Source: a virus (Duplodnaviria; Heunggongvirae; Uroviricota; Caudoviricetes). From it: a stretch of DNA of 33,876 bases. The notes under the pieces are model-generated. The model did no database searches. It was not told the origin of the DNA and saw nothing but the letters and a program-made list of their open reading frames with translations. The stretch lies in IMG/VR virus record IMGVR_UViG_2698536610_000003; one strand, given 5' to 3'. The stretch's first letter is position 1. The number at the start of each line of letters is the position of its first letter. Shown here one piece after another: positions 6,411 to 27,417 of the stretch. The position numbers were made by a program, and so were the translations under genes.

Positions 6411-6539
6411 GGCTATTAGATTACGAATAAATACAGGTCTTATTGATGGATTGGGTAATAGTAAACTTTAAAAAATAATAATTGTAATGTTTTAAATTAT
6501 AGTTAAATTTCGCTTAATGACATTATCTTCTTAATATTT

Positions 6540-6569
6540 AAAGTGCCTCCCATTATTAGGGGGCACTTT
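6540..6569 (-). terminator. hairpin immediately downstream of the cargo operon (stem aaagtgcc/ggcacttt plus GC extension, 7-nt loop)
   Basis: Inverted repeat read directly, 17 nt past the PRTase stop on the minus strand, followed by an A/U-rich tract; sits between convergent A and cargo operon. Confidence 0.4.
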
Positions 6570-6585
6570 AAATTATGGGGTTAAT

Positions 6586-7869
6586 TTATTGTGGCCAGTC
6601 CCAGTTATCATATTGTTGAATTTTTTCTGATAACACTTGAGGTGCACTACCGTGAGTTACATTTTCAGCATAACCAATCGTACCGACATAGTTAATGTCA
6701 TCAACATCAAGTGTATTGGCCTCCCATGGCCGTATCTTGCGAGTTGGTTCACAGATAGAAACGTCACGATTGATGGTTTTTAACCACGATATATTTATTA
6801 CATTTGCGCCTGCAGCTTTTAGATACATTCTGGCTGTTTCATGAGCATTTCCTTCAGTGCAAAAATCATCAATAACTAATATTTTCTTACCTTTCAATTT
6901 AGGAGGGTTGGTATATCTTTCGCCGGTGATGAGGTTTTTAATAGGGGCAGGATTTAAATTAACGGTGTTTATTTGAGATGTGATGTTTACTTCTTGCTTA
7001 GCTATCCGAGCTTGCTGTGATTTAATAGCTGTTGTATGTCGTAAGAATAGATCTTTTAGATACTTTCCTTTGAATGAGACTGCTAAACCTTTTAGGTCAT
7101 GCTCCATAATGTTTGCTAGTTTATAAGGATCTTCAGCGTTATGTCCAACGTAGGTGGTTATAAAACTTGCTCCTTCACTTAAGCCAGAGAAATAAATGCT
7201 AGCACCAAGATATCTTATCCAAAAATCGGGGCTTCCAACCGATAGCTTTGCGAGGTCTCTTGCATTGGCTGAATACATTGTAAATTCAGGGACATATGTG
7301 CTAAATGGTGCTAAGGCGTAGTAGTGAACATCTTCATTAAAATGCCCTTGCCATCCCCACAACTGCTCTCTTAAGCAAAAAACATCAATAAATCTAGCGA
7401 TTTCTTTGGGTTCTGAAAATTGAAAACCGTACTCAGTAACCGGTTCATACCAGGTCGCATTAATAAATAGGGTATTCCCGTTGGTAGCTGCTTGTAAGTC
7501 TTCCTGAGAACGCCCTACATAGATCATTTCGTTTCGTTTTAATTCTAACGCAGCCATGATGAAATCTATGGCCTTCCCTGTTTGTTTTGCTGGTATGTTG
7601 TTGTCGAGTTCACGGCAAAAGTGAATTGATTCTGGGAATTTCCTTTTTAGGTATTCGTCTAGTGTTACGATCCCGTCATGTGTTCTCACGTTTCTATTTT
7701 TATTTGTCAAGAAGATAACTTTAATCCCTTTTGATGACAAAAACGCAAACAACTTACGTAATTCAGAATCGATTCTAGATTTTAGTTCCTGAGGTTGAGT
7801 GTTAGATGTTAATGGTAATACAACATCTGCGATTGAAAATATAACTGCCTTTAAATACATATTATTCAT
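6586..7869 (-). CDS. PRTase-domain protein (ComF-like) with possible HAD-like N-terminal region
   Basis: 427 aa; PRPP-binding-loop-like KILVIDDFCTEGNAHE at aa 329-344 (compare hhhhDDhhTTGgT); N-terminal 140 aa shows a HAD-like motif order (hhhh-Thr, Lys, GxxxED) but with the first Asp replaced; AT-rich; start ATG overlaps upstream gene as ATGAATAA. Confidence 0.75.
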   Translation of the reverse strand: MNNMYLKAVIFSIADVVLPLTSNTQPQELKSRIDSELRKLFAFLSSKGIKVIFLTNKNRNVRTHDGIVTLDEYLKRKFPESIHFCRELDNNIPAKQTGKAIDFIMAALELKRNEMIYVGRSQEDLQAATNGNTLFINATWYEPVTEYGFQFSEPKEIARFIDVFCLREQLWGWQGHFNEDVHYYALAPFSTYVPEFTMYSANARDLAKLSVGSPDFWIRYLGASIYFSGLSEGASFITTYVGHNAEDPYKLANIMEHDLKGLAVSFKGKYLKDLFLRHTTAIKSQQARIAKQEVNITSQINTVNLNPAPIKNLITGERYTNPPKLKGKKILVIDDFCTEGNAHETARMYLKAAGANVINISWLKTINRDVSICEPTRKIRPWEANTLDVDDINYVGTIGYAENVTHGSAPQVLSEKIQQYDNWDWPQ

Positions 7870-8911
7870 CTCCCAGAAGAGAAAGTTGCTGTGTTTTTAC
7901 ACCGGATGCTGATTTAATTAAGCTTTGCACGTCTTTAAAATCGGATAGTGGAATATTCATTATCGTAGCTGAGTACTCTGACAAGGCATGTTTAATCTCT
8001 TCTTGAGGTGTAGTTCCCCTAAGTAAAGGACAAAGTATCGCTCTTTTTAATTGAGCAGCATATCTCACAGTATGAGATGTCCCACTTTTTAGGCCCCATT
8101 CAACTGGGATCAATACATCACTTAAAGCTGCTTGAATTCTATTTCTACGAACAAAGTTTTCCTGTGATGGTTTTTGGTTTGGTAAATACTCAGTAAGAAT
8201 CAGTCCGCCATTATTTACAATATGGCCTCTCATCTCGCCACTATTTTTGGGATAATTTGAGTTTACGCCAGTACCTAACACAGCAATTGTCGGTATTTTA
8301 AATAACAGGGATGCTTCATGTGCAGATTGATCTATACCATATGCTAAACCGCTTACAGTTGAATAATCCGAATCTATAAATTGCGAGATTACTGCTTGAG
8401 TTAAATAAATTCCAAGTGCGGTTGGGTTTCTGGTGCCGACAACTCCAACACACTTTTTATCTAGCAAGGATACATTGCCTTGAGCAAACAACCAGAAAGG
8501 CGGCTCAGACAGGTCATTCAACTTGTCTGGATAGCTCGGAGAACCATAGTGGATGATTTTGTAACCACTATTATGATAATGTGTGAGTAATATTTTAGCC
8601 GTAGAAATCATGCTGTCCCGAAAAACAGACCAATTGCCTTCATTCAAATAATAAGGTTGGCGATGAAGTTTTACTCCAAGTAGATACTCAAAGTTGGCTA
8701 ATGTTTGACTGGTAACAATGTCTCTAAATCTGATTCCCTTTTGAGCAACTTTATATAGAGTCCAATAACTAACGCCATGTATTTCTGATAGTGCCAACAA
8801 AGCGGCACTTTCTGTGTTCCATCGAGCTGTTTCAATATCCGTCATAATGTTCGCCAAAATGGAAGATTTTTTATCGCTTTTATCATAGGTTTGTATAAAA
8901 GTGTAGCACAT
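7862..8911 (-). CDS. DprA/Smf-like Rossmann-fold protein
   Basis: 349 aa; core VSGLAYGIDQSAHEASL...TIAVLGTGVNSNYPKNS...FVRRNRIQAALSDVLIPVEWGLKSGTSHTVRYAAQLKRA parallels DprA Rossmann signature (SGxAxGID..AH..AL, AVLG.G....YP, RNRI.A.LS); N-terminal helical region; AT-rich. Confidence 0.8.
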   Translation of the reverse strand: MCYTFIQTYDKSDKKSSILANIMTDIETARWNTESAALLALSEIHGVSYWTLYKVAQKGIRFRDIVTSQTLANFEYLLGVKLHRQPYYLNEGNWSVFRDSMISTAKILLTHYHNSGYKIIHYGSPSYPDKLNDLSEPPFWLFAQGNVSLLDKKCVGVVGTRNPTALGIYLTQAVISQFIDSDYSTVSGLAYGIDQSAHEASLLFKIPTIAVLGTGVNSNYPKNSGEMRGHIVNNGGLILTEYLPNQKPSQENFVRRNRIQAALSDVLIPVEWGLKSGTSHTVRYAAQLKRAILCPLLRGTTPQEEIKHALSEYSATIMNIPLSDFKDVQSLIKSASGVKTQQLSLLGDE

Positions 8912-9049
8912 TAAACCAAGACTTTAGAGGGCATGTTCTTGCATCAAACTGCATGTAAAAAAACAAAAAATTAATGCACCTTAGGCCTTATCCAGTCAAT
9001 CTCGAGTGTTCACATGCATCTGCATTAAAACCGCCCCACGAAGCGGGCG

Positions 9050-9068
9050 GGCGAGGCGGGGAAAGCAC
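9050..9068. other. cos: cos site, 19-nt cohesive end sequence ggcgaggcggggaaagcac
   Basis: Exact 19-mer that I recall as the P2 cohesive end, at the expected position between the accessory region and portal gene Q. Confidence 0.75.
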
Positions 9069-9211
9069 TGCGCGCTGGCGGTGGTGCTGATTTTATTTTT
9101 TCAGCGTCTGAGCGCGTCGTGATGGCGTTTAGATTGTTCGCCGGGGCCGTTGGTGTGTCTGCGGGGTGTTTTGTGCGGTGGTGAGCGTATGAGGGCGTGA
9201 TGACGGGGTGT

Positions 9212-9233
9212 AAAAAAGCCGCCCGCAGGCGGC
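9212..9233 (-). terminator. rho-independent terminator after Q (minus-strand RNA GCCGCC-UGCG-GGCGGC followed by UUUUUU)
   Basis: Perfect 6-bp GC stem with 4-nt loop and 6-U tract read on the minus strand just past the Q stop codon. Confidence 0.7.
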
Positions 9234-9238
9234 GATGT

Positions 9239-10273
9239 TCAGCCGTTGTCAGTGTCCAGTGAGTAGTTTTTAAAGCGGATGACTTCCTGGCCGAGCCAGC
9301 CGTTTATCTCGCGGATCCTGTCCTGTAGCGGGATAAGCTCATTGCGGACAAAGACCTTTGCCACTTTCTCAATATCGCCCAGCGACCCGACGTTCTCCGG
9401 CTTGCCGCCCATCAACTGAAAGGGGATGCGGTGCGCGTCCAGCAGGTCAGCGGCGCTGGCTTTTTTGATATTAAAAAAATCGTCCTTCGTCGCCACTTCA
9501 CTGAGCGGGATAATTTTAATGCCGTCGGCTTTCCCCTGTGGGGCATAGAGAAACAGGTTTTTAAAGTTGTTGCGGCCTTTCGACTTAACCATGTTTTCGC
9601 GGAGCATTTCGATATCGTTGCGATCCTGCACGGCATCGGTGACGTACATGATGTATCCGGCATGTGCGCCGTTTTCGTAATACTTGCGGCGGAACAGCGT
9701 GGCTGATTCATTCAGCCAGGCAGAGTTAAGGGCGCTGAGATATTCCGGCAGGCCGTACAGCTCCTGATTGATATCCGGCTCCAGCAGGTGAAACACGGAG
9801 CCGGGCGTGAAAGGTGTTGGCTCGTTGAAGGACGGCACCCACCAGTAAATATCTTCTTCCACACCACGGCGGGTATATTTTGCCGGTGAGGTTTCCAGTC
9901 TGATGACCTTACCGGTGGTGCTGTAACGCTTTTCCAGAAACGCATTACCGAACACCAGAAAATCCAGCACAAAGCGGCTGAAATCCTGCTGGGAAAGCCA
10001 CGGATGCGGGATAAATGTCGAGGCCAGAATATTACGTTTGACGTAAATCGGGGAGCTGTGATGCACGGCAGCACGCAGGCTTTTTGCCAGACCGGTAAAG
10101 CTGACCGGTGGCTCATACCATCTGCCGTTACTGATGCACTCGACGTAATCCAGAATGTCACGGCGATCGAGTACCGGCACCGGCTCACCAAAGGTGAATG
10201 CCTCCATTTTCGGGGCGCTGGTGGTCATTGTTTTTGCCGCTGGTCGCGGTGTTTTCCCTTTTTTCTTGCTCAT
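9239..10273 (-). CDS. Q: portal protein Q
   Basis: 344 aa, same size and position as P2 Q; stop/start overlap (ATGA) with P. Confidence 0.93.
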   Translation of the reverse strand: MSKKKGKTPRPAAKTMTTSAPKMEAFTFGEPVPVLDRRDILDYVECISNGRWYEPPVSFTGLAKSLRAAVHHSSPIYVKRNILASTFIPHPWLSQQDFSRFVLDFLVFGNAFLEKRYSTTGKVIRLETSPAKYTRRGVEEDIYWWVPSFNEPTPFTPGSVFHLLEPDINQELYGLPEYLSALNSAWLNESATLFRRKYYENGAHAGYIMYVTDAVQDRNDIEMLRENMVKSKGRNNFKNLFLYAPQGKADGIKIIPLSEVATKDDFFNIKKASAADLLDAHRIPFQLMGGKPENVGSLGDIEKVAKVFVRNELIPLQDRIREINGWLGQEVIRFKNYSLDTDNG

Positions 10274-12045
10274 CAGTAAAACTCCAGAATGGTGGATGTC
10301 AGCGGAGTGCTGATACCGGCGGTGAGTGGCTCATTTAACAGGGCGTGCATGGTCGCCCAGGCGAGGTCGGCGTGGCTGGCTTCCTCGCTGCGGCTGGCCT
10401 CATAGGTGGCGCTGCGTCCGCTGCTGGTCATGGTCTTGCGGATAGCCATAAACGAGCTGGTGATGTCGGTGGCGCTGACGTCATATTCCAGACAGCCACG
10501 GCGGATAACGTCTTTGGCCTTGAGCACCATTGCGGTTTTCATTTCCGGCGTGTAGCGGATGTCGCGCGCGGCGGGATAGAACGAGCGCACGAGCTGGAAC
10601 ACGCCGACACCGAGGCCGGTGGCATCAATTCCGATGTATTCGACGTTGTATTTTTCGGTGAGTTTGCGGATGGATTCAGCCTGAGTGGCAAAGTCCATGC
10701 CTTTCCACTGATGACGCTCAAGTATTCTGAATTTGCCACCGGCCACCACCGGCGGTGCCAGCACCACGCATCCGGCGCTGTCGCCACGGTGTGACGGGTC
10801 GTAACCAATCCAGACCGGACGGGAGCCGAACGGATTGGCAGCAAAGGGGGCATAGTCTTCCCATTCTTCCAGCGTGTCGACCATGCAGCGTTGCAGCTCC
10901 TCGAACGGGAACACCGACGCCTTGTCGTCAACAAATTCACACATGAACAGGTTTTTAAAATCGTCGGCGCTGTTTTCGCGTTTGAGCTGCTCAATGTCGA
11001 ACAGCGTGCAGCCGCCTTTCAGGGCGTCCTCAATGGTGACAATCTGCCGCCACTGGCCGTCCGCACAGAGAAGCCCACCGGCAAGGGCGTTATGACTGAC
11101 GTCGATTTCCACGCGTTCGGCGGCGCTGGCGCGTCCCCGGTTGAACAGTTCACCCGACCAGAACGGGTAGGCGTCGTGCGCCAGCGTGGACGGGGTGGAG
11201 AAATAGGTCGATCGCAGGTGACTCTGTGAGGCCATACCTGATGCCACCTTACGCAGCACCTGAAAATTCGGGATCCAGAAAATCTCGTCGACGTACAGGT
11301 CGCCGTTATGGCTCTGCGCGGTGTTGGAGTTGGTGCCGAGAAAAATCAGTTTTGCGCCGTTATTGCCCAGGACAATCGGGTCACCGGTCAGGTCAACGTC
11401 AACCAGATGGGCAAAGGCGATGATGTATTCACGGAACACATACGCCTGCGTTTTACTGGCCGACAGAAAAATCTGGTTATGACCGGTTTTCAGGGCGCGC
11501 AGCAGCGCCTCGCGGGAAAAATAAAACGTCGCGCCAATCTGGCGGGATTTCAGGATATCGCGGATGCGGTGCTCAAGCCCGGCGCGATACCAGTGCAACT
11601 GATAATCGAAAGACTGCTCAAAGAAAATCTGCTCCAGCTTTTCGATGGCCTCGTCACTGAAAAAATTCTTTTTCGGTTTGCGCCGCCCGCCTTTGTTGCG
11701 GTTAGCGACGTTCGGATTAAGGTCTGCCTCGTTGCCGGTCTGGCTGTAGCGGTTTACCCGTGCCAGTCGTTCAATCTGGCGTCCCAGCAGGTCAATTTCC
11801 TTGAAATCACCGCCGGTTTTCTGCGGTTTGATGATGAGCTGGGTCAGCCGCGCTTCCAGACTCATTTCGACACGGCTGATGGGGGCAACGCTGTCCCAGC
11901 CGTCGCGCTGTTTCCAGCTCTGCACCGTCGGGCGTTTCATCTGCAACATGGCGGCAATCTGCGGCACGGAAAATCCCTGCCAGTACAGCAGCGCCGCCTG
12001 ACGACGCGGGTCGTGTAAAAGAGTGGTGTCTGTGGTGATGGTCAT
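10273..12045 (-). CDS. P: terminase large subunit P
   Basis: 590 aa from ATG 12045 (track start at 12075 is a TTG 10 codons upstream); N-terminus MTITTDTTLLHDPRR matches P2 P as I recall. Confidence 0.92.
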   Translation of the reverse strand: MTITTDTTLLHDPRRQAALLYWQGFSVPQIAAMLQMKRPTVQSWKQRDGWDSVAPISRVEMSLEARLTQLIIKPQKTGGDFKEIDLLGRQIERLARVNRYSQTGNEADLNPNVANRNKGGRRKPKKNFFSDEAIEKLEQIFFEQSFDYQLHWYRAGLEHRIRDILKSRQIGATFYFSREALLRALKTGHNQIFLSASKTQAYVFREYIIAFAHLVDVDLTGDPIVLGNNGAKLIFLGTNSNTAQSHNGDLYVDEIFWIPNFQVLRKVASGMASQSHLRSTYFSTPSTLAHDAYPFWSGELFNRGRASAAERVEIDVSHNALAGGLLCADGQWRQIVTIEDALKGGCTLFDIEQLKRENSADDFKNLFMCEFVDDKASVFPFEELQRCMVDTLEEWEDYAPFAANPFGSRPVWIGYDPSHRGDSAGCVVLAPPVVAGGKFRILERHQWKGMDFATQAESIRKLTEKYNVEYIGIDATGLGVGVFQLVRSFYPAARDIRYTPEMKTAMVLKAKDVIRRGCLEYDVSATDITSSFMAIRKTMTSSGRSATYEASRSEEASHADLAWATMHALLNEPLTAGISTPLTSTILEFY

Positions 12046-12218
12046 GAATACCTCGCCGTGATGAATACACGGCAAGGCTACTGAGTCGCGCCCTGCGATT
12101 CGCTAAGGTGCTGTTGTGTCAGTGATAAGCCATCCGGGACTGATGGCGGAGGATGCGCATCGTCGGGAAACTGATGCCGACATGTGACTCCTCTAATCAC
12201 TATTCAGGACTCCTGACA
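12046..12218. promoter_or_regulatory. divergent late promoter region (expected Ogr-dependent promoters for the Q-P and O-to-S operons)
   Basis: Intergenic region between divergent P and O, placed by P2 gene organisation; no motif confidently identified. Confidence 0.4.
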
Positions 12219-13073
12219 ATGGCAAAAAAAGTCTCAAAATTCTTTCGTATCGGCGTTGAGGGTGACACCTGTGACGGGCGTGTCATCAGTGCGCAGGATA
12301 TTCAGGAAATGGCCGAAACCTTTGACCCGCGAGTCTATGGTTGCCGCATTAACCTGGAACATCTGCGCGGCATCCTGCCTGACGGTATTTTTAAGCGTTA
12401 TGGCGATGTGGCCGAACTGAAGGCCGAAAAGATTGACGATGATTCGGCGCTGAAAGGCAAATGGGCGCTGTTTGCGAAAATCACCCCGACCGATGACCTT
12501 ATCGCGATGAACAAGGCCGCGCAGAAGGTCTATACCTCAATGGAAATTCAGCCGAACTTTGCCAATACCGGCAAATGTTATCTGGTGGGTCTGGCCGTCA
12601 CCGATGACCCGGCAAGCCTCGGCACGGAATACCTGGAATTCTGCCGCACGGCAAAACACAACCCTCTGAACCGCTTCAAATTAAGCCCTGAAAACCTGAT
12701 TTCAGTGGCAACGCCTGTTGAGCTGGAATTTGAAGACCTGCCTGAAACCGTGTTCACAGCCCTGACCGAAAAGGTGAAATCCATTTTTGGCCGCAAACAG
12801 GCCAGCGATGACGCCCGTCTGAATGACGTGCATGAAGCGGTGACCGCTGTCGCTGAGCATGTGCAGGAAAAACTGAGCGCCACTGAGCAGCGCCTTGCTG
12901 AGATGGAAACCGCCTTTTCCGCACTTAAGCAGGATGTGACTGACAGGGCGGATGAAACCAGTCAGGCATTCACCCGCCTGAAAAACAGTCTCGACCACAC
13001 CGAAAGTCTGACCCAGCAGCGCCGCAGTAAAGCCACCGGCGGTGGCGGTGACGCCCTGATGACGAACTGCTGA
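12219..13073 (+). CDS. O: capsid scaffolding protein O
   Basis: 284 aa from ATG 12219 (track start 12153 is upstream in frame); N-terminus MAKKVSKFFRIGVEGD matches P2 O as I recall. Confidence 0.9.
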   Translation: MAKKVSKFFRIGVEGDTCDGRVISAQDIQEMAETFDPRVYGCRINLEHLRGILPDGIFKRYGDVAELKAEKIDDDSALKGKWALFAKITPTDDLIAMNKAAQKVYTSMEIQPNFANTGKCYLVGLAVTDDPASLGTEYLEFCRTAKHNPLNRFKLSPENLISVATPVELEFEDLPETVFTALTEKVKSIFGRKQASDDARLNDVHEAVTAVAEHVQEKLSATEQRLAEMETAFSALKQDVTDRADETSQAFTRLKNSLDHTESLTQQRRSKATGGGGDALMTNC

Positions 13074-13131
13074 CCGGCGTCAGTCAGTCCGGGAAAACCT
13101 TCACGATTAACCCTTAATTTCAGGAAAAACT

Positions 13132-14205
13132 ATGCGCCAGGAAACCCGCTTTAAATTTAATGCCTACCTGTCCCGTGTTGCCGAACTGAACGGCATCGAC
13201 GCCGGTGATGTGTCGAAAAAATTCACCGTTGAACCGTCGGTCACCCAGACCCTGATGAACACCATGCAGGAGTCCTCTGATTTTCTGACCCGCATCAACA
13301 TTGTGCCGGTCAGCGAAATGAAAGGGGAAAAAATTGGTATCGGTGTCACCGGCTCCATCGCCAGCACCACCGACACCGCCGGTGGCACCGAGCGTCAGCC
13401 GAAGGACTTCTCGAAGCTGGCGTCTAACAAGTACGAATGCGACCAGATTAACTTCGATTTTTATATCCGCTACAAAACGCTGGACCTGTGGGCGCGTTAT
13501 CAGGATTTCCAGCTCCGTATCCGTAACGCCATTATCAAACGCCAGTCCCTTGATTTCATCATGGCCGGTTTTAACGGCGTGAAGCGTGCCGAAACCTCTG
13601 ACCGCAACAGTAATCCGATGCTGCAGGATGTGGCGGTCGGCTGGCTGCAGAAATACCGCAATGAAGCCCCGGCGCGCGTGATGAGCAAGGTCACTGACGA
13701 GGAAGGCCGCACCACCTCTGAGGTTATCCGCGTGGGTAAGGGCGGTGATTATGCCAGCCTTGATGCACTGGTGATGGATGCGACCAACAACCTGATTGAA
13801 CCGTGGTATCAGGAAGACCCTGACCTTGTGGTGATTGTGGGACGTCAGCTACTGGCGGACAAGTATTTTCCCATCGTCAACAAGGAGCAGGACAACAGCG
13901 AAATGCTGGCCGCTGACGTCATCATCAGCCAGAAACGCATCGGCAACCTGCCAGCGGTACGCGTCCCGTACTTCCCGGCAGATGCGATGCTCATCACGAA
14001 GCTGGAAAACCTGTCCATCTACTACATGGATGACAGCCATCGCCGCGTGATTGAGGAAAACCCGAAACTCGACCGCGTGGAGAACTACGAGTCAATGAAC
14101 ATTGATTACGTGGTGGAAGACTACGCCGCCGGTTGTCTGGTGGAAAAAATTAAGGTCGGTGATTTCTCCACACCGGCTAAAGCGACCGCAGAGCCGGGAG
14201 CGTAA
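13132..14205 (+). CDS. N: major capsid protein N
   Basis: 357 aa, same size and position as P2 N. Confidence 0.93.
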   Translation: MRQETRFKFNAYLSRVAELNGIDAGDVSKKFTVEPSVTQTLMNTMQESSDFLTRINIVPVSEMKGEKIGIGVTGSIASTTDTAGGTERQPKDFSKLASNKYECDQINFDFYIRYKTLDLWARYQDFQLRIRNAIIKRQSLDFIMAGFNGVKRAETSDRNSNPMLQDVAVGWLQKYRNEAPARVMSKVTDEEGRTTSEVIRVGKGGDYASLDALVMDATNNLIEPWYQEDPDLVVIVGRQLLADKYFPIVNKEQDNSEMLAADVIISQKRIGNLPAVRVPYFPADAMLITKLENLSIYYMDDSHRRVIEENPKLDRVENYESMNIDYVVEDYAAGCLVEKIKVGDFSTPAKATAEPGA

Positions 14206-14208
14206 CCG

Positions 14209-14952: not shown

Positions 14953-15051
14953 CAACCGAATGCGCCCCGCGCCAGGGCGGCACGCCGGTCAGTGAGGGTG
15001 AATCACCTGACACAGCACTGGCGTCCACCGCCCGACTTTTCAGAGGTAGTC

Positions 15052-15764: not shown

Positions 15765-15767
15765 CGC

Positions 15768-16546: not shown

Positions 16547-16560
16547 ACGGAGTAAACACC

Positions 16561-17974: not shown

Positions 17975-18419
17975 GTTTAAGCGTTTTGAAGACCGGCTGA
18001 CCGGGCTGATTGAATCGCTGTCACCGTCAGGGCGTCGGCGACTGAGTGCCGAACTGGCGAAGCGCCTGCGGCAGAGTCAGCAGCGTCGGGTGATGGCACA
18101 GAAAGCCCCGGACGGCACACCCTACGCGCCACGCCAGCAGCAGAGCGCCAGAAAAAAGACCGGTCGTGTTAAGCGAAAAATGTTTGCGAAACTTATCACC
18201 AGTCGTTTTTTGCATATCCGCGCCAGCCCGGAGCAGGCATCAATGGAATTTTACGGCGGGAAGTCACCGAAAATCGCCAGTGTGCATCAGTTCGGTCTGT
18301 CGGAAGAAAACCGGAAAGACGGTAAGAAAATTGATTATCCGGCGCGTCCTCTGCTCGGCTTTACCGGTGAGGATGTGCAGATGATTGAAGAGATTATTCT
18401 GGCGCACCTCGACCGTTAG
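17967..18419 (+). CDS. S: tail completion protein S
   Basis: 150 aa, size and order as P2 S. Confidence 0.88.
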   Translation: MNEFKRFEDRLTGLIESLSPSGRRRLSAELAKRLRQSQQRRVMAQKAPDGTPYAPRQQQSARKKTGRVKRKMFAKLITSRFLHIRASPEQASMEFYGGKSPKIASVHQFGLSEENRKDGKKIDYPARPLLGFTGEDVQMIEEIILAHLDR

Positions 18420-18485
18420 TTGTGCCATTCCCGACACCTCATCGTCACATTGCCGCCGGTATGACCCGGCGGCATCCTTCCCGTT
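18420..18485 (+). promoter_or_regulatory. expected late promoter region for the V-W-J-I-H-G operon
   Basis: 66-bp intergenic gap before V, placed by P2 organisation; motif not confidently assigned. Confidence 0.35.
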
Positions 18486-19121
18486 ATGAACACTCTCGCA
18501 AATATTCAGGAACTCGCGCGCGCACTGCGCAACATGATCCGCACCGGCATTATCGTCGAAACCGACCTTAACGCCGGTCGCTGCCGTGTGCAGACCGGCG
18601 GCATGTGCACCGACTGGCTTCAGTGGCTGACCCATCGCGCCGGACGTTCGTGCACATGGTGGGCACCTTCCGTGGGGGAACAGGTGTTGATTCTGTCCGT
18701 GGGCGGTGAACTCGACACGGCGTTTGTTCTGCCGGGGATTTATTCCGGCGATAATCCCGCGCCGTCTGCGTCGGCGGATGCCCTGCATATCCGTTTCCCT
18801 GACGGGGCGGTGATTGAGTATGAACCCGAAACCAGTGCACTGACGGTAAGCGGAATTAAAACGGCCAGCGTGACGGCTTCTGATTCTGTTACTGCCACGG
18901 TGCCGGTGGTCATGGTGAAAGCATCAACCCGCATCACCCTGGACACACCGGAGGTGGTCTGCACCAACAGGCTGATTACCGGCACGCTGGAAGTGCAGAA
19001 GGGCGGGACGATGCGCGGCAACATTGAACACACCGGCGGTGAACTCTCATCAAACGGTAAGGTACTGCATACCCACAAACACCCCGGCGACAGCGGCGGC
19101 ACAACCGGGAGTCCTTTATGA
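18486..19121 (+). CDS. V: baseplate spike protein V
   Basis: 211 aa, size and order as P2 V. Confidence 0.9.
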   Translation: MNTLANIQELARALRNMIRTGIIVETDLNAGRCRVQTGGMCTDWLQWLTHRAGRSCTWWAPSVGEQVLILSVGGELDTAFVLPGIYSGDNPAPSASADALHIRFPDGAVIEYEPETSALTVSGIKTASVTASDSVTATVPVVMVKASTRITLDTPEVVCTNRLITGTLEVQKGGTMRGNIEHTGGELSSNGKVLHTHKHPGDSGGTTGSPL

Positions 19122-19465
19122 CAGCGCGTTATCTCGGAATGAATCGCAGTGATGGCCTGACGGTCATTGACCTTGAGCATATCAGCCAGAGTATCGGCGA
19201 TATCCTGCGCACACCGGTCGGCTCACGGGTGATGCGTCGTGATTACGGCTCGTTGCTGGCGTCAATGATTGACCAGCCGCAGACCCCGGCGCTTGAGTTG
19301 CAGATTAAGGTCGCCTGTTACATGGCCGTGCTGAAATGGGAACCCCGCGTCACCCTGTCATCCGTCACCACGGCGCGCAGTTTTGACGGGCGAATGACGG
19401 TCACGTTAACCGGTCAGCACAACGACACCGGCCAGCCACTTTCGTTAACCATCCCTGTGAGTTGA
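19118..19465 (+). CDS. W: baseplate protein W (gp25-like)
   Basis: 115 aa, 4-nt overlap with V, size and order as P2 W. Confidence 0.9.
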   Translation: MTARYLGMNRSDGLTVIDLEHISQSIGDILRTPVGSRVMRRDYGSLLASMIDQPQTPALELQIKVACYMAVLKWEPRVTLSSVTTARSFDGRMTVTLTGQHNDTGQPLSLTIPVS

Positions 19466-19469
19466 AATC

Positions 19470-20378
19470 ATGCCGATTATCGACCTGAACCAGCTACCCG
19501 CACCGGATGTGGTCGAGGAGCTGGACTTTGAAACCATTCTTGCCGAACGCAAGGCGACACTGATTTCCCTTTACCCGGAAGACCAGCAGGAGGCGGTCGC
19601 CCGTACCCTGACACTGGAATCTGAGCCTCTCGTCAAACTGCTGGAAGAAAATGCTTATCGTGAGCTTATCTGGCGTCAGCGTGTGAATGAGGCCGCACGG
19701 GCGGTGATGCTGGCCTGTGCCGCCGGTAATGACCTTGATGTGATTGGTGCCAATTACAACACCACGCGCCTGACTATCACCCCGGCAGATGATTCGACTA
19801 TCCCGCCGACACCGGCAGTGATGGAATCTGACACCGATTATCGTCTGCGTATTCAGCAGGCTTTTGAGGGCTTAAGCGTCGCCGGGTCAGTGGGAGCCTA
19901 TCAGTATCATGGCCGCAGTGCCGACGGGCGTGTCGCGGATATCTCTGTCACCAGTCCGTCTCCGGCCTGCGTCACTATCTCTGTGCTGTCACGTGAAAAT
20001 AACGGCGTCGCATCCGAAGACCTGCTGGCCGTGGTGCGTAACGCCCTTAATGGCGAGGACGTCAGACCGGTGGCCGACCGCGTGACCGTGCAGTCTGCCG
20101 CCATCGTTGAATACCAGATAAACGCCACGCTGTATCTTTACCCTGGTCCCGAAAGCGAACCCATCCGCGCTGCCGCCGTGAAAAAACTGGAAGCGTATAT
20201 CACTGCACAGCACCGGCTGGGGCGCGACATCCGTCTGTCTGCCATTTATGCCGCTTTGCATGTGGAAGGCGTGCAGCGTGTCGAGCTGGCCGAACCACTG
20301 GCCGACATTGTGCTCAACAGTACGCAGGCGTCTTTCTGTACCGAATACCGCGTCGTGACCGGAGGCTCGGATGAGTGA
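19470..20378 (+). CDS. J: baseplate wedge protein J
   Basis: 302 aa, size and order as P2 J. Confidence 0.9.
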   Translation: MPIIDLNQLPAPDVVEELDFETILAERKATLISLYPEDQQEAVARTLTLESEPLVKLLEENAYRELIWRQRVNEAARAVMLACAAGNDLDVIGANYNTTRLTITPADDSTIPPTPAVMESDTDYRLRIQQAFEGLSVAGSVGAYQYHGRSADGRVADISVTSPSPACVTISVLSRENNGVASEDLLAVVRNALNGEDVRPVADRVTVQSAAIVEYQINATLYLYPGPESEPIRAAAVKKLEAYITAQHRLGRDIRLSAIYAALHVEGVQRVELAEPLADIVLNSTQASFCTEYRVVTGGSDE

Positions 20379-20901
20379 TTCGCGCCTGCTGCCGACCGGC
20401 TCATCACCGCTTGAAGTTGCCGCCGCAAAAGCCTGTGCGGAAATTGAAAAAACGCCGGTCAGGATTCGTGAACTGTGGAACCCGGATACCTGTCCGGCAA
20501 ATCTGCTGCCGTGGCTGGCGTGGGCGTTTTCGGTCGACAGGTGGGATGAAAAGTGGCCGGAAGCGACAAAACGCGCCGTTATCCGCGATGCCTATTTCAT
20601 CCACTGTCATAAGGGCACTATCGGTGCAATCCGGCGTGTGGTGGAGCCGCTCGGCTATCTCATCAACGTGACGGAGTGGTGGGAAAACAGTGACCCGCCA
20701 GGCACCTTCCGGCTTGATATTGGTGTACTGGAAAGCGGCATCACAGAGGCAATGTATCAGGAAATGGAACGGCTGATTGCTGATGCCAAACCTGCAAGCC
20801 GCCACCTTATCGGCCTGAACATTACCCGGGACATTCCCGGCTACCTGTTCGCCGGTGGTGTGGCTTACGACGGCGATGTAATTACGGTTTACCCCGGATA
20901 A
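20371..20901 (+). CDS. I: baseplate/tail fibre attachment protein I
   Basis: 176 aa, overlaps J by 8 nt, size and order as P2 I. Confidence 0.9.
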   Translation: MSDSRLLPTGSSPLEVAAAKACAEIEKTPVRIRELWNPDTCPANLLPWLAWAFSVDRWDEKWPEATKRAVIRDAYFIHCHKGTIGAIRRVVEPLGYLINVTEWWENSDPPGTFRLDIGVLESGITEAMYQEMERLIADAKPASRHLIGLNITRDIPGYLFAGGVAYDGDVITVYPG

Positions 20902-20911
20902 GTGAGGAATA

Positions 20912-23230
20912 ATGAGCACAAAATTCAGAACCGTTATCACCACTGCCGGTGCAGCAAAGCTGGCAGCGGCAACCGCACCGGGAGGGCGGAAGGTCAACAT
21001 TACCACGATGGCCGTCGGGGATGGCGGTGGTAAATTGCCTGTCCCGGATGCCGGACAGACCGGACTTATTCACGAAGTCTGGCGACATACGCTGAACAAA
21101 ATCAGCCAGGACAAACGAAACAGTAATTATATTATCGCAGAGCTGGTTATTCCGCCGGAGGTGGGCGGTTTCTGGATGCGTGAGCTTGGCCTGTACGATG
21201 ATGCGGGAACGTTAATTGCCGTGGCGAACATGGCCGAAAGTTATAAGCCAGCTCTTGCCGAAGGCTCAGGGCGTTCGCAGACCTGTCGCATGGTCATCAT
21301 CGTCAGCAGTGTGGCCTCGGTGGAGCTGACCATTGACACCACAACGGTGATGGCGACACAGGATTACGTTGATGACAAAATTGCAGAGCACGAACAGTCA
21401 CGACGTCACCCGGACGCCTCGCTGACCGCAAAAGGTTTTACTCAGTTAAGCAGTGCGACCAACAGCACGTCTGAAACACTGGCCGCAACGCCGAAAGCGG
21501 TAAAGGCCGCCTATGACCTTGCTAACGGGAAATATACCGCACAGGACGCTACCACAGCACGAAAAGGCCTTGTCCAGCTCAGTAGTGCGACCAACAGCAC
21601 GTCTGAAACACTGGCCGCAACGCCGAAAGCGGTAAAGGCCGCCTATGACCTTGCTAACGGGAAATACACTGCACAGGACGCCACTACAGCGCGAAAAGGT
21701 CTTGCCCAGCTCAGTAGCGCCACCAACAGCGATTCTGAAACGCTTGCGGCAACACCAAAGGCGGTTAAGACAGCGTATGACCTTGCTAACGGGAAATACA
21801 CTGCACAGGATGCCACCACGGTGCGAAAAGGTCTTGTCCAGCTCAGTAGCGCCACCAACAGTGATTCTGAAACCCTCGCGGCAACGCCAAAAGCAGTGAA
21901 GTCTGCCTATGACAATGCTGAAAAACGTCTTCAGAAAGATCAGAACGGTGCGGATATTCCGGGAAAGGATACCTTCACGAAAAATATCGGTGCCTGTCGT
22001 GCTTATAGCGGCGCTTTGAGCACTGAAGCCGGAAACTGGACAACCGCTCAGTTTATTGAATGGCTGGATTCCCGTGGTGCATTTAATCATCCGTACTGGA
22101 TGTGCAAAGGCTCCTGGTCATATGCAAATAACAAAATCATTACGGATACCGGATGTGGTGATATCCACCTGGCTGGTTGTGTCGTCGAGGTCATGGGAAC
22201 TAAATCTGCAATCACTATCCGAGTGACCACGCCGACAACATCAAGTGGTGGCGGTACAACCAGCGCGCAATTCACTTACATTAATCATGGGGACGGCTAC
22301 TCCCCCGGCTGGCGTCGTGACTGGAATCGTCAGGGCGACTCAATGACCGGAACGATTAATCAGGATGGCGGAAGCCAGAATGCCTATATGTCTACGGCCT
22401 TATGTTCAGGCACCAGAGGCGGCAAAAAATATCTCAGAAAGTTTCGTGGTGGAGAAGGAGATACTATCTGGCATGAAACAGTACAGGGCGAGGTAATTCG
22501 CTGGGCGACAGGTAATACTGATGCTCGGGAAGAATTATCACTCAGCTCTGTTTATGGTCTTCGTTCAAGAGGTGAAATTACATCGCTCAGTGCTAATGGT
22601 CTGCGCGTTGCTTATGGCAATTATGGATTCTTTATCAGGAATGATGGCGGCAGCACATATTTAATGCTGACGGCCTCTGGCGATAAATTTGGGACATGGA
22701 ACGGCTTAAGACCGCTGACTATCAATAACGCCAATGGCGGAGTGTCAATGGGGCATGGCCTGAGTGTTACAGGTGATATTGTCTCAAGTACCAAAGTACG
22801 TGCCGGTAGCGGGAAAAAGTTCACGGTCAGCAGCAGCAATACATCCACGAAGGAAGCCGCATTCAATTTGTGGGGAAACTCAAGTCGTCCTGTGGTGGCT
22901 GAATTAGGTGATGATGCAGGCTGGCATTTTTACAGTCAGAGAAATACAGATAACAGCATCACTTTTGCTGTTAACGGTCAGGTATCACCATCTAACTATG
23001 GCAACTTTGATTCACGCTATGTCCGGGATATCCGGCTTGGTGGTGCTGCCACATACAAACCTGCGAACAATGGCATGACATGGACACATCAGGCACCGTC
23101 CGGGTGTGTATATTCTGGCATTATTGTTCAGGATACCGGCTCAAACTCTGCCGATAACATTGGTGGCGTATATTACAGACCGGTGCAGAAATACATTAAC
23201 GGGACATGGTATAACGTGGCACAGGTATAA
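20912..23230 (+). CDS. H: tail fibre protein H (mosaic: P2-like N-terminus, four tandem fibre repeats, divergent distal domain)
   Basis: 772 aa (P2 H is shorter as I recall); conserved N-terminal 170 aa; repeats QLSSATNS[TD]SETLAATPKAVK...; C-terminal half unlike P2 H. Confidence 0.88.
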   Translation: MSTKFRTVITTAGAAKLAAATAPGGRKVNITTMAVGDGGGKLPVPDAGQTGLIHEVWRHTLNKISQDKRNSNYIIAELVIPPEVGGFWMRELGLYDDAGTLIAVANMAESYKPALAEGSGRSQTCRMVIIVSSVASVELTIDTTTVMATQDYVDDKIAEHEQSRRHPDASLTAKGFTQLSSATNSTSETLAATPKAVKAAYDLANGKYTAQDATTARKGLVQLSSATNSTSETLAATPKAVKAAYDLANGKYTAQDATTARKGLAQLSSATNSDSETLAATPKAVKTAYDLANGKYTAQDATTVRKGLVQLSSATNSDSETLAATPKAVKSAYDNAEKRLQKDQNGADIPGKDTFTKNIGACRAYSGALSTEAGNWTTAQFIEWLDSRGAFNHPYWMCKGSWSYANNKIITDTGCGDIHLAGCVVEVMGTKSAITIRVTTPTTSSGGGTTSAQFTYINHGDGYSPGWRRDWNRQGDSMTGTINQDGGSQNAYMSTALCSGTRGGKKYLRKFRGGEGDTIWHETVQGEVIRWATGNTDAREELSLSSVYGLRSRGEITSLSANGLRVAYGNYGFFIRNDGGSTYLMLTASGDKFGTWNGLRPLTINNANGGVSMGHGLSVTGDIVSSTKVRAGSGKKFTVSSSNTSTKEAAFNLWGNSSRPVVAELGDDAGWHFYSQRNTDNSITFAVNGQVSPSNYGNFDSRYVRDIRLGGAATYKPANNGMTWTHQAPSGCVYSGIIVQDTGSNSADNIGGVYYRPVQKYINGTWYNVAQV
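21443..21928 (+). repeat. in-frame tandem repeat, 3 full copies of 132 bp (44 aa) plus a partial fourth, inside H
   Basis: Copies start at 21443, 21575, 21707, 21839; near-identical DNA with scattered synonymous and few non-synonymous differences. Confidence 0.9.
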
Positions 23231-23233
23231 TTT

Positions 23234-23761
23234 ATGCAGCATTTGATAAATATAACCGCGGGTAATCCAAAAACGGTTGAACAATATCAATTGACAAAGG
23301 ACTTTGATGTTGTCTGGTTTTTTACAGAAGATGGTAAGAACTGGTACGAAGAACAAAAGTATTTTGCTGATGACACGATAAAAATAGCGTACGACAAGGA
23401 TAATATTATCCGCTATATGGAAAAAGATGTGACAGCTATCAGACCAGATGGATTAAGTGTGGTTGAAGTGGCGGATATTACTGCTAACCGACGGGCGGAC
23501 ATTTCAGGGAACTGGATGTTTAAGGACGGCAAAGTGATTAAACGCATTTATACGGCAGAGGAATTGCAGCAGCAGGCAGAAAACCGGAAAGCCAGACTTC
23601 TTGCAGATGCTGAATCCGTGATTTTGCCGCTGGAGCGCGCGGTCAGACTGAACATGGCAACAGATGAGGAGCGTAGCCGACTGGATGCATGGGAGCGTTA
23701 CAGCGTTCTGGTCAGTCGTGTGGATCCTGCAAATCCTGAATGGCCGGAAATGCCGCAATAA
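23234..23761 (+). CDS. G: tail fibre assembly chaperone G
   Basis: 175 aa directly after H, same size and position as P2 G. Confidence 0.85.
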
Positions 23762-24043
23762 GTTGTATGAGCTCTGGTGTGAGCTTACATATCTATGGCA
23801 CAGAGTAAAGACTAATCTGACAGTCCGCTCTGTGCCAATAGCGGACGTAACAAGTATGATATTGGATGATGTTGCGAGGGGTGGTAGTCTGAAGCACGGC
23901 ATACGGCAATCGACCTAAAATGATGCCGTATTCAAGGAATTCTGGTATATGAGGCCTGTAAAATTGTTAACAGGATGCATACTTGTATGCAGCGCAAGTT
24001 ACCTTTAAGTTGGTTCAATTGAATAAACTATGTTTTCCCATGC

Positions 24044-24071
24044 TTGCATCATCGCTAGGTGAACATAAAAT
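24044..24071 (+). promoter_or_regulatory. candidate sigma70 promoter for the hotspot-2 cargo gene: -35 TTGCAT (24044..24049), 16-nt spacer, -10 TAAAAT (24066..24071)
   Basis: Hexamers and spacing read directly; about 36 bp upstream of ATG 24108, which has a GGAG RBS. Confidence 0.45.
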
Positions 24072-24107
24072 GTTCTGGAGATTAACGTTTAGGTTTATAG
24101 GAGCTTT

Positions 24108-25319
24108 ATGAGAGTAGAATTCACAGAAAGAACAAAGAATGTACTTGCTGGGAGAGCAGGATACCAATGTAGCCATCCTCAATGTTCAATAATAACTATT
24201 GGCCCAGGTGAAAAAGAGGATGAGACATCCAGCATCGGTGAGGCATCACATATTTATAGTGCAGCTAAAAATGGCCCCAGAGGGCAAGGTGGGCTAACAG
24301 AAGAACAGTTAAAAAGCCCTGAGAATGGAATTTGGCTATGTAAGGTACACGCAAGGTTAGTTGATACAAATAATGGAGCAGGATTTACCGCATCACAACT
24401 AATTAGTTGGAAAAAATATCATGAGGAATTCATTAAACATCACCAGGGAAGGATCGTCAATAAATTACATTGGATATCAAAACTATCAATAGTTGATAGT
24501 CCTTTATTTCAAGATTCAATAAGCATCGACTTTGCAAAAATAACAATTATTGAGAGTGATAGTAATGGCGCAGGGAAAACAGCAATATGCGAGTGGTTAT
24601 CAAGTGTCAGTGCAATAAATAGACTTGAGCGCTGGGTTAATTGTGAAAAGCTCAATATTGAAATTCATTTGCACACGCCAGAGCCACACTTAATTGAAGT
24701 GAGTGTAAATAGCGGAAGGATTTCCTATAAAGTTGATTCTCTTGACATTACCTCAAGTCCTTTTCCTTTTGCATGCTATTTTTTTGATTTTAATTACTCA
24801 AAGAAAAAATATAATAAAACATCTAACTTTTTTGCTGAGTTCATAAATATATCGCCAGTGCTACTTGAGAGTCTTTTTGATTATGTATGCAGAAACAAAA
24901 AAGGCATACTTAAATCAATCAGATTTGCTACTCAGGAAGAGCTGGAACAGGATGATGATAGTGAAGATGAAAAAGAGCGAGATATTCATGATATCTATTG
25001 CATGATACAAGGTAATGATTCTTATTTGCCTTTCGAGTGTTTATCTGGAAGTGAAAAAACTAGAGTGCTATTGGATGTTATAATCGCATCATTAAATGAG
25101 CGTTCCAAATACACACCGACACTACTTTTTATAGAAATGAATGAAACCTTTTTATCAAAGGAATCTTTTAAACCATACATTGAAAGATTGAATTCCATTG
25201 AGACTTCATTTCAAACCATCGTAACAACTCATTCGAACATATTAAATGAGTGTTCCGTAGGTTTTCCCCGTTATGAATTGATAAAAGGTATCAACACATC
25301 AACCTTGAGGAAAATATAA
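24108..25319 (+). CDS. HNH endonuclease fused to compact ABC-type (AAA_21-like) ATPase; candidate defence protein
   Basis: 403 aa. N-terminus: Zn-finger/HNH layout C21-x4-C26 ... ASHIY (H48) ... ENGIWLCKVH (N73, C78, H81) ... D86. C-terminus: Walker A-like SNGAGKT (K157), ABC signature-like LSGSEK (312-317), degenerate Walker B TLLFIEMNE (338-346), H-loop IVTTHS (H375). Strongly AT-rich. Confidence 0.75.
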   Translation: MRVEFTERTKNVLAGRAGYQCSHPQCSIITIGPGEKEDETSSIGEASHIYSAAKNGPRGQGGLTEEQLKSPENGIWLCKVHARLVDTNNGAGFTASQLISWKKYHEEFIKHHQGRIVNKLHWISKLSIVDSPLFQDSISIDFAKITIIESDSNGAGKTAICEWLSSVSAINRLERWVNCEKLNIEIHLHTPEPHLIEVSVNSGRISYKVDSLDITSSPFPFACYFFDFNYSKKKYNKTSNFFAEFINISPVLLESLFDYVCRNKKGILKSIRFATQEELEQDDDSEDEKERDIHDIYCMIQGNDSYLPFECLSGSEKTRVLLDVIIASLNERSKYTPTLLFIEMNETFLSKESFKPYIERLNSIETSFQTIVTTHSNILNECSVGFPRYELIKGINTSTLRKI

Positions 25320-25516
25320 AATAATCATTGTGTGATAAATTTTTAAAATGCCATTGTTTGTCAGGTCGAACTGGGTAAATGGATATAGTATTCATTCAAT
25401 AAACTGAATAAACCGTTGTCAACGTCCGCTCCTCGCTCAAAGCAGACAGTCAGATTTGATAGCATTTGGGCTATGTAAATTGTCAGGCGGAAAATGAGTG
25501 AGTACAAATCAGGACA

Positions 25517-25544
25517 GGCGGGCGAATTGCCCGCCTTTTCTTTA
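25517..25544 (+). terminator. rho-independent terminator after cargo gene (GGCGGGC-gaatt-GCCCGCC followed by TTTTCTTTA)
   Basis: Perfect 7-bp GC stem, 5-nt loop and T-rich tract read directly, about 200 bp past the cargo stop and just upstream of FI. Confidence 0.75.
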
Positions 25545-25545
25545 T

Positions 25546-25639
25546 CTGTTGTTTCATCCACTGACCAGCCAGGTCAAATAGCGTCTCATGCTCTGCACAA
25601 CAGAAAATAGTTGCACCCATTAACCACGGAGTTAAACGG
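25546..25639 (+). promoter_or_regulatory. expected late promoter region for the FI-FII-E-T-U-D operon
   Basis: Region between cargo terminator and FI start, placed by P2 organisation; motif not confidently assigned. Confidence 0.35.
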
Positions 25640-26830: not shown

Positions 26831-26842
26831 GGAGCCTGACCG

Positions 26843-27361: not shown

Positions 27362-27368
27362 TTTTCAT

Positions 27369-27389: not shown

Positions 27390-27417
27390 TTAACCCTGAT
27401 TCAGAAGTGAGAAAACC

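Follow-up and report, generated by a model that had tools for sequence, protein, structure and literature searches.

ShosTA and a candidate HNH nuclease–ABC ATPase defence gene in the two classical cargo hotspots of a P2-like Escherichia coli prophage

What is carried at the two cargo positions of a P2-like prophage, and could both cargos protect the lysogen? The question is raised by a window of 33,876 nucleotides (the whole stretch of DNA analyzed here), for which a preliminary description proposed two unrelated candidate defence loci, each with its own expression signals. The explanation considered probable here is an intact P2-like prophage with ShosTA between genes A and Q (hotspot A/Q) and a candidate defence gene, encoding an HNH nuclease–ABC ATPase fusion (HNH-ATPase), between genes G and FI (hotspot G/FI).

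A P2-like (Peduovirus) prophage, approximately 97% identical to phage P2, occupies positions 476–32370 of the window. Blastn against P2 (NC_001895) gave 96.5–97.5% identity across 476–6407, 9050–18421, 18486–21637 and 25420–32370, and the P2 gene order is kept colinear through the replication, head, lysis and tail modules. The prophage is matched by 231 phage records, the majority of which are Peduovirus. P2 homology begins at 476, the counterpart of position 24355 in P2, where the attP core lies. The left 28-bp att core repeat (attL, TAAAAAATAAGCCCGTGTAAGGGAGATT, 476–503) is an exact direct repeat of the right one (attR, 32343–32370). The gene yegR (1–318) lies left of attL and yegQ (32515–33876, minus strand) right of attR, the same arrangement as in sibling prophages. 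The 19-nt cohesive end of the cos site was placed at 9050–9068 by P2 alignment: 9021–9068 aligns with the P2 cosR end (33546–33593), and P2 position 1 aligns from 9050 onward. The phage record P24C9 ends at this cos site. With att core repeats at both ends and an internal cos beside gene Q, the window holds the integrated form of a P2-like E. coli prophage, apparently intact, between yegR and yegQ.

Two discrete low-GC islands (GC 0.34–0.38 versus about 0.55–0.60 in the backbone) sit where blastn colinearity with P2 breaks. Island 1 (6408–9020, GC about 0.38) stands in place of P2 orf91-tin-old; P2 homology ends at 6407 and restarts at 9021, and the cargo adjoins cos. It is bordered on the left by the replication endonuclease gene A (4155–6410, plus strand; 97% identical to P2 gpA by tblastn), whose final 30 nt or so contain the recombination junction, and on the right by the portal gene Q (9239–10273, minus strand; 98% identical to P2 gpQ). 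Island 2 (23847–25419, GC 0.34–0.36) stands in place of the P2 tV terminator and fun(Z), with P2 homology ending at 23846 and restarting at 25420. Its borders are the tail fibre assembly gene G (23234–23761, plus strand; Pfam Caudo_TAP, 1e-34; 74% amino acid identity to P2 gpG) and the tail sheath gene FI (25640–26830, plus strand; 98% identical to P2 FI). The interval 6411–25639 is an envelope only; the two cargos are separated by structural genes usual for P2, over about 15 kb.

The earlier statement that both cargo positions are filled is correct for the classical hotspots A/Q and G/FI. However, the variable positions of P2 number more than two. A third, between genes S and V (18422–18485; orf30 in P2), is empty here: S and V are just 64 nt apart, and P2 9370–10307 has no counterpart. 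Additional minor hotspots are described in the literature. The reported lack of tin, old and fun is borne out: when the P2 proteins Tin, Old, Fun(Z), Orf30 and Orf91 were searched for in the window by tblastn, no match was better than E=0.16.

The islands resemble the old-tin and fun(Z) hotspots of P2 in their backbone positions and in being low-GC, swappable anti-phage cargo. Transcription of the A/Q cargo, like that of old-tin, starts near cos and runs leftwards. The cargo genes, in contrast, show no relationship to Old, Tin and Fun. The G/FI cargo lies on the plus strand and reads in the same direction as the tail genes, opposite to fun(Z) on the minus strand; the tV terminator is absent. 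Each of the two classical moron hotspots probably gained a different low-GC cassette by horizontal acquisition. Defence genes in both P2 hotspots have already been published (Rousset 2022; Vassallo 2022; Moura de Sousa 2026), and G/FI is itself a published defence hotspot (Vassallo 2022; iLund4u preprint).

Island 1 is ShosTA (DprA-PRTase), an already characterized anti-phage toxin–antitoxin system. The toxin gene shosT (6586–7869, minus strand), encoding 427 aa with HAD-like pyrophosphatase and PRTase domains, matches PADLOC PDLC03012 over 427 of 427 positions (979.5 bits, 4e-296) and ShosT of PDB 8zvb (984 bits). The DprA-like antitoxin gene shosA (7862–8845, minus strand; 327 aa) lies directly upstream in the same operon with an 8-nt overlap; its reading frame could be extended to 8911, and the family and PDB alignments begin at the ATG at 8845. 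ShosA matches PADLOC ShosA (PDLC02997; 763 bits, 5e-231), Pfam DNA_processg_A (PF02481; 8e-60, 202 bits, cut-off 29.6) and the PDB entries 9vzo (733 bits) and 8zva. ShosT is identical to that of APEC O1 at 424 of 424 residues and ShosA at 326 of 327 (Y100 here versus H). The likeness extends to gene order, the 8-nt overlap and the whole 2.8-kb island (99.2% nucleotide identity), as well as to the hotspot A/Q beside cos and the chromosomal att site yegR/yegQ.

ShosTA of APEC O1 (Rousset 2022; Millman 2022; Nat Commun 2025, PMC11961720; NAR 2026, PMC12961424) has been crystallized (PDB 8zvb, 8zva, 9vzo, 9w2p) and protects against T7 and lambda (PMC9122126, PMC11961720, PMC12961424). Toxin–antitoxin behaviour and phage protection have been published for APEC O1 proteins 100% and 99.7% identical to those described here, and also for the P2-hotspot DprA-PRTase. 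The two loci are indeed unrelated, as the preliminary description held; the first is an already validated system and the second is still a candidate.

ShosTA probably acts as a type IV toxin–antitoxin abortive-infection system. In published work on the identical protein, ShosT, through its HAD-like pyrophosphatase and PRTase domains, binds PRPP and perturbs purine metabolism, which leads to DNA over-replication and damage, filamentation and death. ShosA, published as a 99.7%-identical protein, binds ssDNA and RecA and counters the damage caused by ShosT. Since ShosA is unstable, shut-off of host transcription by a phage (T7 Gp0.7) releases ShosT during infection; invading ssDNA may also trigger the system by disturbing the ShosA–RecA interaction. 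An earlier proposal that the two loci act at different stages fits this mechanism as regards the ssDNA or nucleotide level, and DNA cleavage would be the putative share of the HNH protein.

The sole gene of island 2 (24108–25319, plus strand), preceded by a good Shine–Dalgarno sequence (GGAG, 24100–24103), encodes the HNH nuclease–ABC ATPase fusion of 403 aa. The HNH domain (approximately residues 1–120) is of the Cap5 type and belongs to the oligomerization-activated effector clade of Cap5 and SPARHA. The C-terminal 280 aa (approximately residues 121–403) fold as an ABC head of the SMC/RecF/Rad50 class with Walker A, signature motif and Walker B. Residue conservation was scored over 192 homologues. 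The HNH residues H48, R58, N73 and D86 are conserved in 100% of them, the Zn ligands C21, C26 and C78 in 98–100% and H81 in 95%. In the head, Walker A GK[TS] reaches 99–100%, the acidic residue of Walker B 94% and the signature Ser 87%. The catalytic glutamate after Walker B, which hydrolysis requires along with an H-loop histidine, is absent: position 344 is M in the prophage protein and G, A, S or L in the family. The H-loop His375 is present in the prophage protein but in just 12% of the family.

Whole-protein defence models of PADLOC 2.0, NCBIfam, Pfam and PHROGs gave no match to the fusion, and a literature search found no paper on it. The PADLOC candidate PDC-M68 was considered and rejected, as only profile positions 2–121 of 253 of PDC-M68A (the HNH part) are matched and there is no second gene. 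The CBASS effector Cap5 fits in HNH type and was likewise rejected. Unlike Cap5 (HNH-SAVED) and SPARHA HNH-APAZ, the fusion has an ABC ATPase head in place of SAVED or APAZ/pAgo; no C-terminal SAVED sensor was found, nor a CD-NTase or Argonaute gene alongside. OLD, Gabija GajA and PARIS AriA combine an ABC ATPase with TOPRIM, whereas the nuclease here is HNH and the protein far smaller (403 aa). No TOPRIM match was found in Pfam or PADLOC, and the ATPase motifs match GajA (1.4e-4) and AriA (7.9e-3) weakly and partially.

A further parallel is with Septu and the type I-A retron effectors, in which an SMC-like ABC head is likewise coupled to an HNH nuclease; unlike the latter, no retron RT or ncRNA is near the gene. 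Septu PtuA has been published as an ATP-binding, non-hydrolyzing regulator of an HNH DNase, and the head of the fusion similarly lacks the hydrolytic Glu. The shared pair of activities, the missing Glu and weak PtuA sequence matches would suit a fused Septu (PtuAB) variant working exactly like Septu or retron-associated PtuAB. However, the score with NCBIfam PtuA (15.8 bits) falls far below the cut-off of 500, no PtuB match was obtained in PADLOC at E<=0.01, and island 2 has no separate PtuB HNH gene. The fusion is instead a single polypeptide with an N-terminal HNH domain of the Cap5/SPARHA-like clade, and it lacks the coiled-coil and the PtuA-specific insert. Identity with Septu in mode of action is regarded as highly improbable.

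The HNH-ATPase family is uniform and uncharacterized and comprises at least 831 sequence clusters (831 representatives at E<=1e-30). Its members are lone genes with no conserved partner, located in prophages, in integrase islands and next to R-M systems; the settings include an integrase-adjacent island, a Proteus prophage, an integrative element and a type I R-M neighbourhood (L009, L010, L005 and L067, respectively). In L002, L066 and L068 the homologues lie in small islets amid housekeeping genes, with no defence neighbours. Island 1 (>=80% coverage) was found in 30 of 5426 complete E. coli genomes and in three phage records. Island 2 was found in 10 of the 5426, which are 10 of the 1007 genomes matching its flanks. 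The two match lists share no genome, so that both islands together occur in none of the 5426. Sibling prophages mix cargos freely. Those with the same HNH-ATPase hold SIR2-HerA, PDC-S06 or nothing at A/Q, and phage P24C9 pairs ShosTA with NUDIX/HAD.

Independent expression signals, previously assigned to both loci, did not stand out at the level of sequence: promoter-like matches numbered 7 in island 1 against a shuffle expectation of 8.2±2.4 and 1 in island 2 against 7.0±2.9. For ShosTA the assignment nevertheless stands, since protection in the published assays came from the native promoter of the APEC O1 island (99.2% identical). For HNH-ATPase, expression in the lysogen and read-through from the late pV operon are equally plausible, judging from the sequence, because no terminator-like hairpin occurs between G and the gene and the only promoter-like site is sub-threshold.

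The same arrangement could indicate that HNH-ATPase is a late gene serving the phage by read-through of the pV tail operon, rather than host-protective immunity. It could then degrade host or competitor DNA in lytic growth, or be a selfish, homing-type nuclease cassette spreading among hotspots. The gene is co-oriented with the V-W-J-I-H-G operon; the sole strong terminator, an intrinsic-terminator-like hairpin with a 9-bp stem (7 GC pairs) and a T-run (25516–25536, plus strand), lies downstream of it within the P2-homologous flank; and movement among unrelated mobile elements would suit a selfish cassette. Several observations nevertheless make this reading unlikely. The HNH domain falls in the Cap5/SPARHA immune-effector clade and not in homing-endonuclease families, and it is joined to an ABC head with a regulatory role, like the heads of Septu, PARIS and Gabija. 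The gene also occurs in non-phage settings, including beside type I R-M. It is dispensable for the phage, because at full length it is in none of 50,697 phage records and is absent from approximately 99% of the flank-matching E. coli genomes. Finally, proven defence genes occupy G/FI in P2 and its relatives (Vassallo 2022).

One or both cargos could also be inert passengers, the double armament having no phenotype: ShosTA could be weakened by the single amino acid difference in ShosA (Y100 versus H), and HNH-ATPase could be a relic that is silent or in decay, canonical promoters being undetected at either island. We consider this very unlikely. Both sets of reading frames are intact, and because ShosT is 100% identical to the active toxin, loss of ShosA function would be lethal, not silent. 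HNH-ATPase is identical at 401–403 of 403 residues among three sibling prophages, with all catalytic motifs preserved, and PMC13586616 describes pseudogenized defences as rare in P2.

Its domains, its conserved catalytic residues and its occurrence on mobile elements make HNH-ATPase a candidate self-contained nuclease-type defence or abortive-infection protein. Its SMC/RecF-like head would bind ATP and probably hydrolyze barely any, because the catalytic Glu is missing and the H-loop His usually so. The head could control dimerization or higher oligomerization, and its engagement state could gate the HNH nuclease, as Cap5/SPARHA-type HNH domains would cut nucleic acid only once brought together. 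The trigger sensed by the head could be the ATP level, DNA ends or a phage protein. Among related HNH and ATPase effectors, those of some systems cut DNA and those of others tRNA (PMC12673091). That the fusion is a new single-protein anti-phage system of this design, a fused minimal counterpart of Septu in which a hydrolysis-deficient head senses the ATP level or DNA or a phage protein and gates the oligomerization-dependent activity of a Cap5/SPARHA-type HNH domain, is put forward tentatively.

That P2 prophages arm their hosts from two exchangeable hotspots is already established; the window adds another example, an ordinary known P2 pattern with one worthwhile candidate. It places the exact studied ShosTA allele within an apparently intact, inducible-looking P2 prophage; the P2 prophage of the reference strain is decayed. 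ShosTA could thus be studied inside a phage that naturally carries it, for instance as to its effect, if any, on P2 itself and on P4 satellites. HNH-ATPase is a compact, easily testable single-gene candidate for nuclease-type defence, conserved, mobile and outside the searched defence-model libraries. The occurrence of the same HNH-ATPase with different partners in siblings provides natural isogenic-like sets in which additivity or synergy between hotspot cargos could be studied.

The window holds a P2-like prophage, as judged by ORF layout, base composition and similarity searches; in blastn it is 96.5-97.5% identical to P2 (NC_001895) over 476-6407, 9050-18421, 18486-21637 and 25420-32370. 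A 28-bp direct repeat, TAAAAAATAAGCCCGTGTAAGGGAGATT, forms attL (476-503) and attR (32343-32370). The left neighbour is yegR (1-318) and the right neighbour is yegQ (32515-33876, minus strand), an insertion site also used by several annotated E. coli prophages. Since counterparts of the P2 genes int through ogr lie inside the colinear alignment and their ORFs are of the expected sizes, the prophage looks intact.

The backbone (GC 0.55-0.60) is broken by two islands of GC 0.34-0.38, at the same places as the breaks in P2 colinearity detected by blastn. Island 1 (6408-9020) is located between gene A and cos (9050-9068)/gene Q, in place of P2 orf91-tin-old. Island 2 (23847-25419) is located between G and FI, in place of the P2 tV terminator and fun(Z). 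The lack of tin, old and fun noticed in the preliminary description was borne out: P2 Tin, Old, Fun(Z), Orf30 and Orf91 as tblastn queries gave no match in the window better than E = 0.16, and the idea of diverged copies of Tin, Old or Fun was rejected on this result. The same description considered both cargo positions of the prophage to be filled. This applies to the two classical hotspots (A|Q and G|FI) and not to all variable positions, since the S|V site, where P2 has orf30, is an empty stretch of 64 nt (18422-18485). The sibling prophages of EC12 and JNE170426 carry a 786-nt minus-strand gene there, and S|V is a third presence/absence polymorphism of the same backbone.

Some backbone genes next to the hotspots also vary. 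The island 1 junction falls within the final ~30 nt of gene A (6380-6410), so the C-terminal tail of gpA differs by cargo; carriers of ShosTA have an annotated gpA of 751 aa, against 758 aa in WP7-S18 and 761 aa in P2. Beside hotspot 2, GC drops to ~0.45, and the tail-fibre gene H (20912-23230) includes 3.5 tandem copies of a 132-nt (44-aa) unit at 21458-21913 (88% matches). The distal part of H from ~21640 aligns only patchily with P2 H, in short segments of 73-89% identity, and gene G is only 77% identical to that of P2 at the nucleotide level; these two features indicate that a receptor-binding module swap directly adjoins hotspot 2.

Island 1 contains two overlapping minus-strand ORFs, shosT and shosA. 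Their products match PADLOC ShosT (979.5 bits, 427/427 profile positions) and ShosA (763 bits), respectively. Pfam identifies DprA in ShosA and gives weak HAD and PRTase signals in ShosT. Among PDB entries, ShosT matches 8zvb (984 bits), and ShosA matches 9vzo (733 bits) and 8zva (704 bits). Direct comparison with APEC O1, the E. coli reference strain of the studied proteins, revealed 424/424 identical residues in ShosT and 326/327 in ShosA, the sole difference being Y100 in the window instead of H; the 2.8-kb island including its upstream region is 99.2% identical. Described at first as a candidate, this locus is, by its PADLOC, PDB and APEC O1 matches, an already known module, ShosTA, the DprA-PRTase system of Rousset et al., which was cloned from the P2 hotspot and protects against T7 and lambda (PMC9122126).

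ShosTA of APEC O1 under its native promoter decreases T7 plating by six orders of magnitude. The coupled PRTase and pyrophosphatase activities of ShosT disrupt purine metabolism, leading to DNA duplication, filamentation and death, while ShosA binds DNA and promotes recombination. The system is triggered by T7 Gp0.7 via transcription shut-off, ShosA being unstable (PMC11961720). ShosT toxicity requires PRPP binding; ShosA is an ssDNA-binding dimer with obligatory RecA binding, and the ShosA-RecA interaction is ssDNA-sensitive (PMC12961424). The earlier guess that the first locus acts at the ssDNA or nucleotide level was therefore right, in view of the published action of ShosT on purines and of ShosA on ssDNA.

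The only substantial ORF of island 2 (24108-25319, plus strand), with GGAG four bases 5' of its ATG, encodes a 403-aa fusion of an HNH nuclease and an ABC ATPase (HNH-ATPase). No whole-protein match was obtained in PADLOC, Pfam, NCBIfam or PHROGs, and no study was found by RefSeq accession or keyword. Its first ~120 residues match HNH effectors, among them the PDC-M68A N-terminus and CBASS SAVED-HNH models, as well as the SPARHA HNH-APAZ structure 9om4 and Cap5. An AlphaFold model built from 39 homologues reached a mean pLDDT of 85 and was used instead of the single-sequence model (pLDDT 32), which was set aside. When 1.84 billion representatives were searched with a profile, 831 family representatives were obtained at E<=1e-30; the best 150 of these are mostly 380-450 aa long and align over almost the whole profile. 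Members of 238-317 aa, considered as possible split two-gene versions, turned out to be N-terminal fragments and not separate ATPase genes.

Residue conservation was counted in an alignment of 192 sequences. In the nuclease site H48, R58, N73, C78 and D86 are 100% conserved, and C21, C26 and H81 are conserved at 98%, 99% and 95%, so that the predicted site is essentially invariant across the family. In the ATPase head, Walker A GK[TS] is kept at 99-100%, the acidic residue of Walker B at 94% and the serine of the signature motif at 87%; the position of the catalytic glutamate is occupied by G, A, S or L in the family and by M in the window protein, and only 12% of members retain the H-loop histidine. 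It is thus probable that the head binds ATP and dimerises, with poor hydrolysis. A parallel is offered by Septu PtuA, for which ATP binding is reported to inhibit the HNH DNase (PMC12673091). Members of the Cap5/SPARHA HNH clade become active when dimers assemble into tetramers or when filaments form, and this clade occurs joined to a wide range of sensor modules (PMC12738770). From these facts combined, a mechanism is proposed in which the ATPase head, through its state of engagement, would gate the assembly of active HNH oligomers.

No conserved partner gene accompanies HNH-ATPase across the contexts examined. A copy in Salmonella enterica (DBKJHJ010000001.1, 6001-7212), with a 98% identical protein, lies immediately downstream of a P4-type integrase beside ychF/pth, in an island that also has AlpA and a second integrase. 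The cassette has therefore moved, almost unchanged, between a P2 hotspot and an integrative element of another kind. Other homologues are found among genes close to the integrase in a Proteus prophage, in an integrative element of Marinobacter that has IS110, immediately behind a type I R-M operon (locus L067), near Rhs/DUF4365 in Serratia, and in small islets amid housekeeping genes (L002, L066 and L068). A further search with a 12-sequence alignment gave mainly HNH-domain-only matches, only L017 being near full-length, and its loci were left out of the neighbourhood statistics. No full-length viral homologue was detected in 50,697 phage records (tblastn) or in BFVD. The HNH domain alone occurs in 'lysogenic conversion' proteins of the P2-like phages P2-EC46 (2581-2913) and vB_YenM_31.17 of Yersinia (931-1257), with ~40% identity over residues 2-110; hence the Cap5-like effector domain recurs in P2 cargo, joined to other partner domains. 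This context pattern fits a mobile stand-alone defence gene, short of proof.

At a coverage of at least 80%, island 1 is present in 30 and island 2 in 10 of 5426 complete E. coli genomes, the island flanks being matched in 2156 and 1007 genomes, respectively; the hit lists do not overlap, and none of the 5426 genomes carries both. An HK97-style packaging role for the HNH protein was rejected, because P2 has its own terminase and the cargo occurs in only 10 of the 1007 flank-matching genomes. Hotspot content was also compared across related prophages, as had been advised, in four prophages at the same att site and one isolated phage, and cargos combine differently at A|Q and G|FI. HNH-ATPase occupies G|FI together with ShosTA at A|Q in the window, SIR2-HerA in EC12 (402/403 identical residues in HNH-ATPase), PDC-S06, a PrrC-like ATPase candidate, in JNE170426 (401/403), and no annotated gene in WP7-S18-ESBL-09 (403/403). 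Phage P24C9 combines ShosTA at A|Q with a NUDIX and HAD pair at G|FI. The two hotspots assort independently and quickly, in line with Moura de Sousa et al., who report systems in more than one hotspot for 10% of the P2 elements that have complete defence systems (PMC13586616).

A consensus scan gave no excess of promoter-like sites over shuffled sequence in either island. For ShosTA this is immaterial, since published assays obtained protection with expression from the near-identical native region. The best sigma-70-like match in hotspot 1 (ATGTCA-16-TATAAT, 10/12, 6496-6523, minus strand) is oriented away from shosT, antisense into the gene A 3' end, and may be a chance match or an antisense promoter. 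Upstream of HNH-ATPase, only a sub-threshold site is present (TTGCAT-16 nt-TAAAAT, 24044-24071, 8/12 matches), and the stretch between G and this gene has no terminator-like hairpin. Its expression in the lysogen is therefore a possibility, and read-through transcription from the late pV operon is plausible. A strong hairpin with a T-run (25516-25536, plus strand) lies downstream of the gene, in the P2-conserved flank and a short way ahead of the pF late promoter region. It may shield pF from the cargo present in the hotspot, whichever that is, and it carries no terminator annotation in the P2 record.

The A|Q locus was established as a defence hotspot by Rousset 2022 (PMC9122126), fun was established as another hotspot enriched in defence, the source of three validated systems (Vassallo 2022), and both are named as the two classical P2 hotspots in the iLund4u preprint. 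The window thus represents a known architecture with the fully characterised ShosTA and one new, testable candidate, HNH-ATPase, and the potential for discovery lies in the HNH-ABC ATPase family only.
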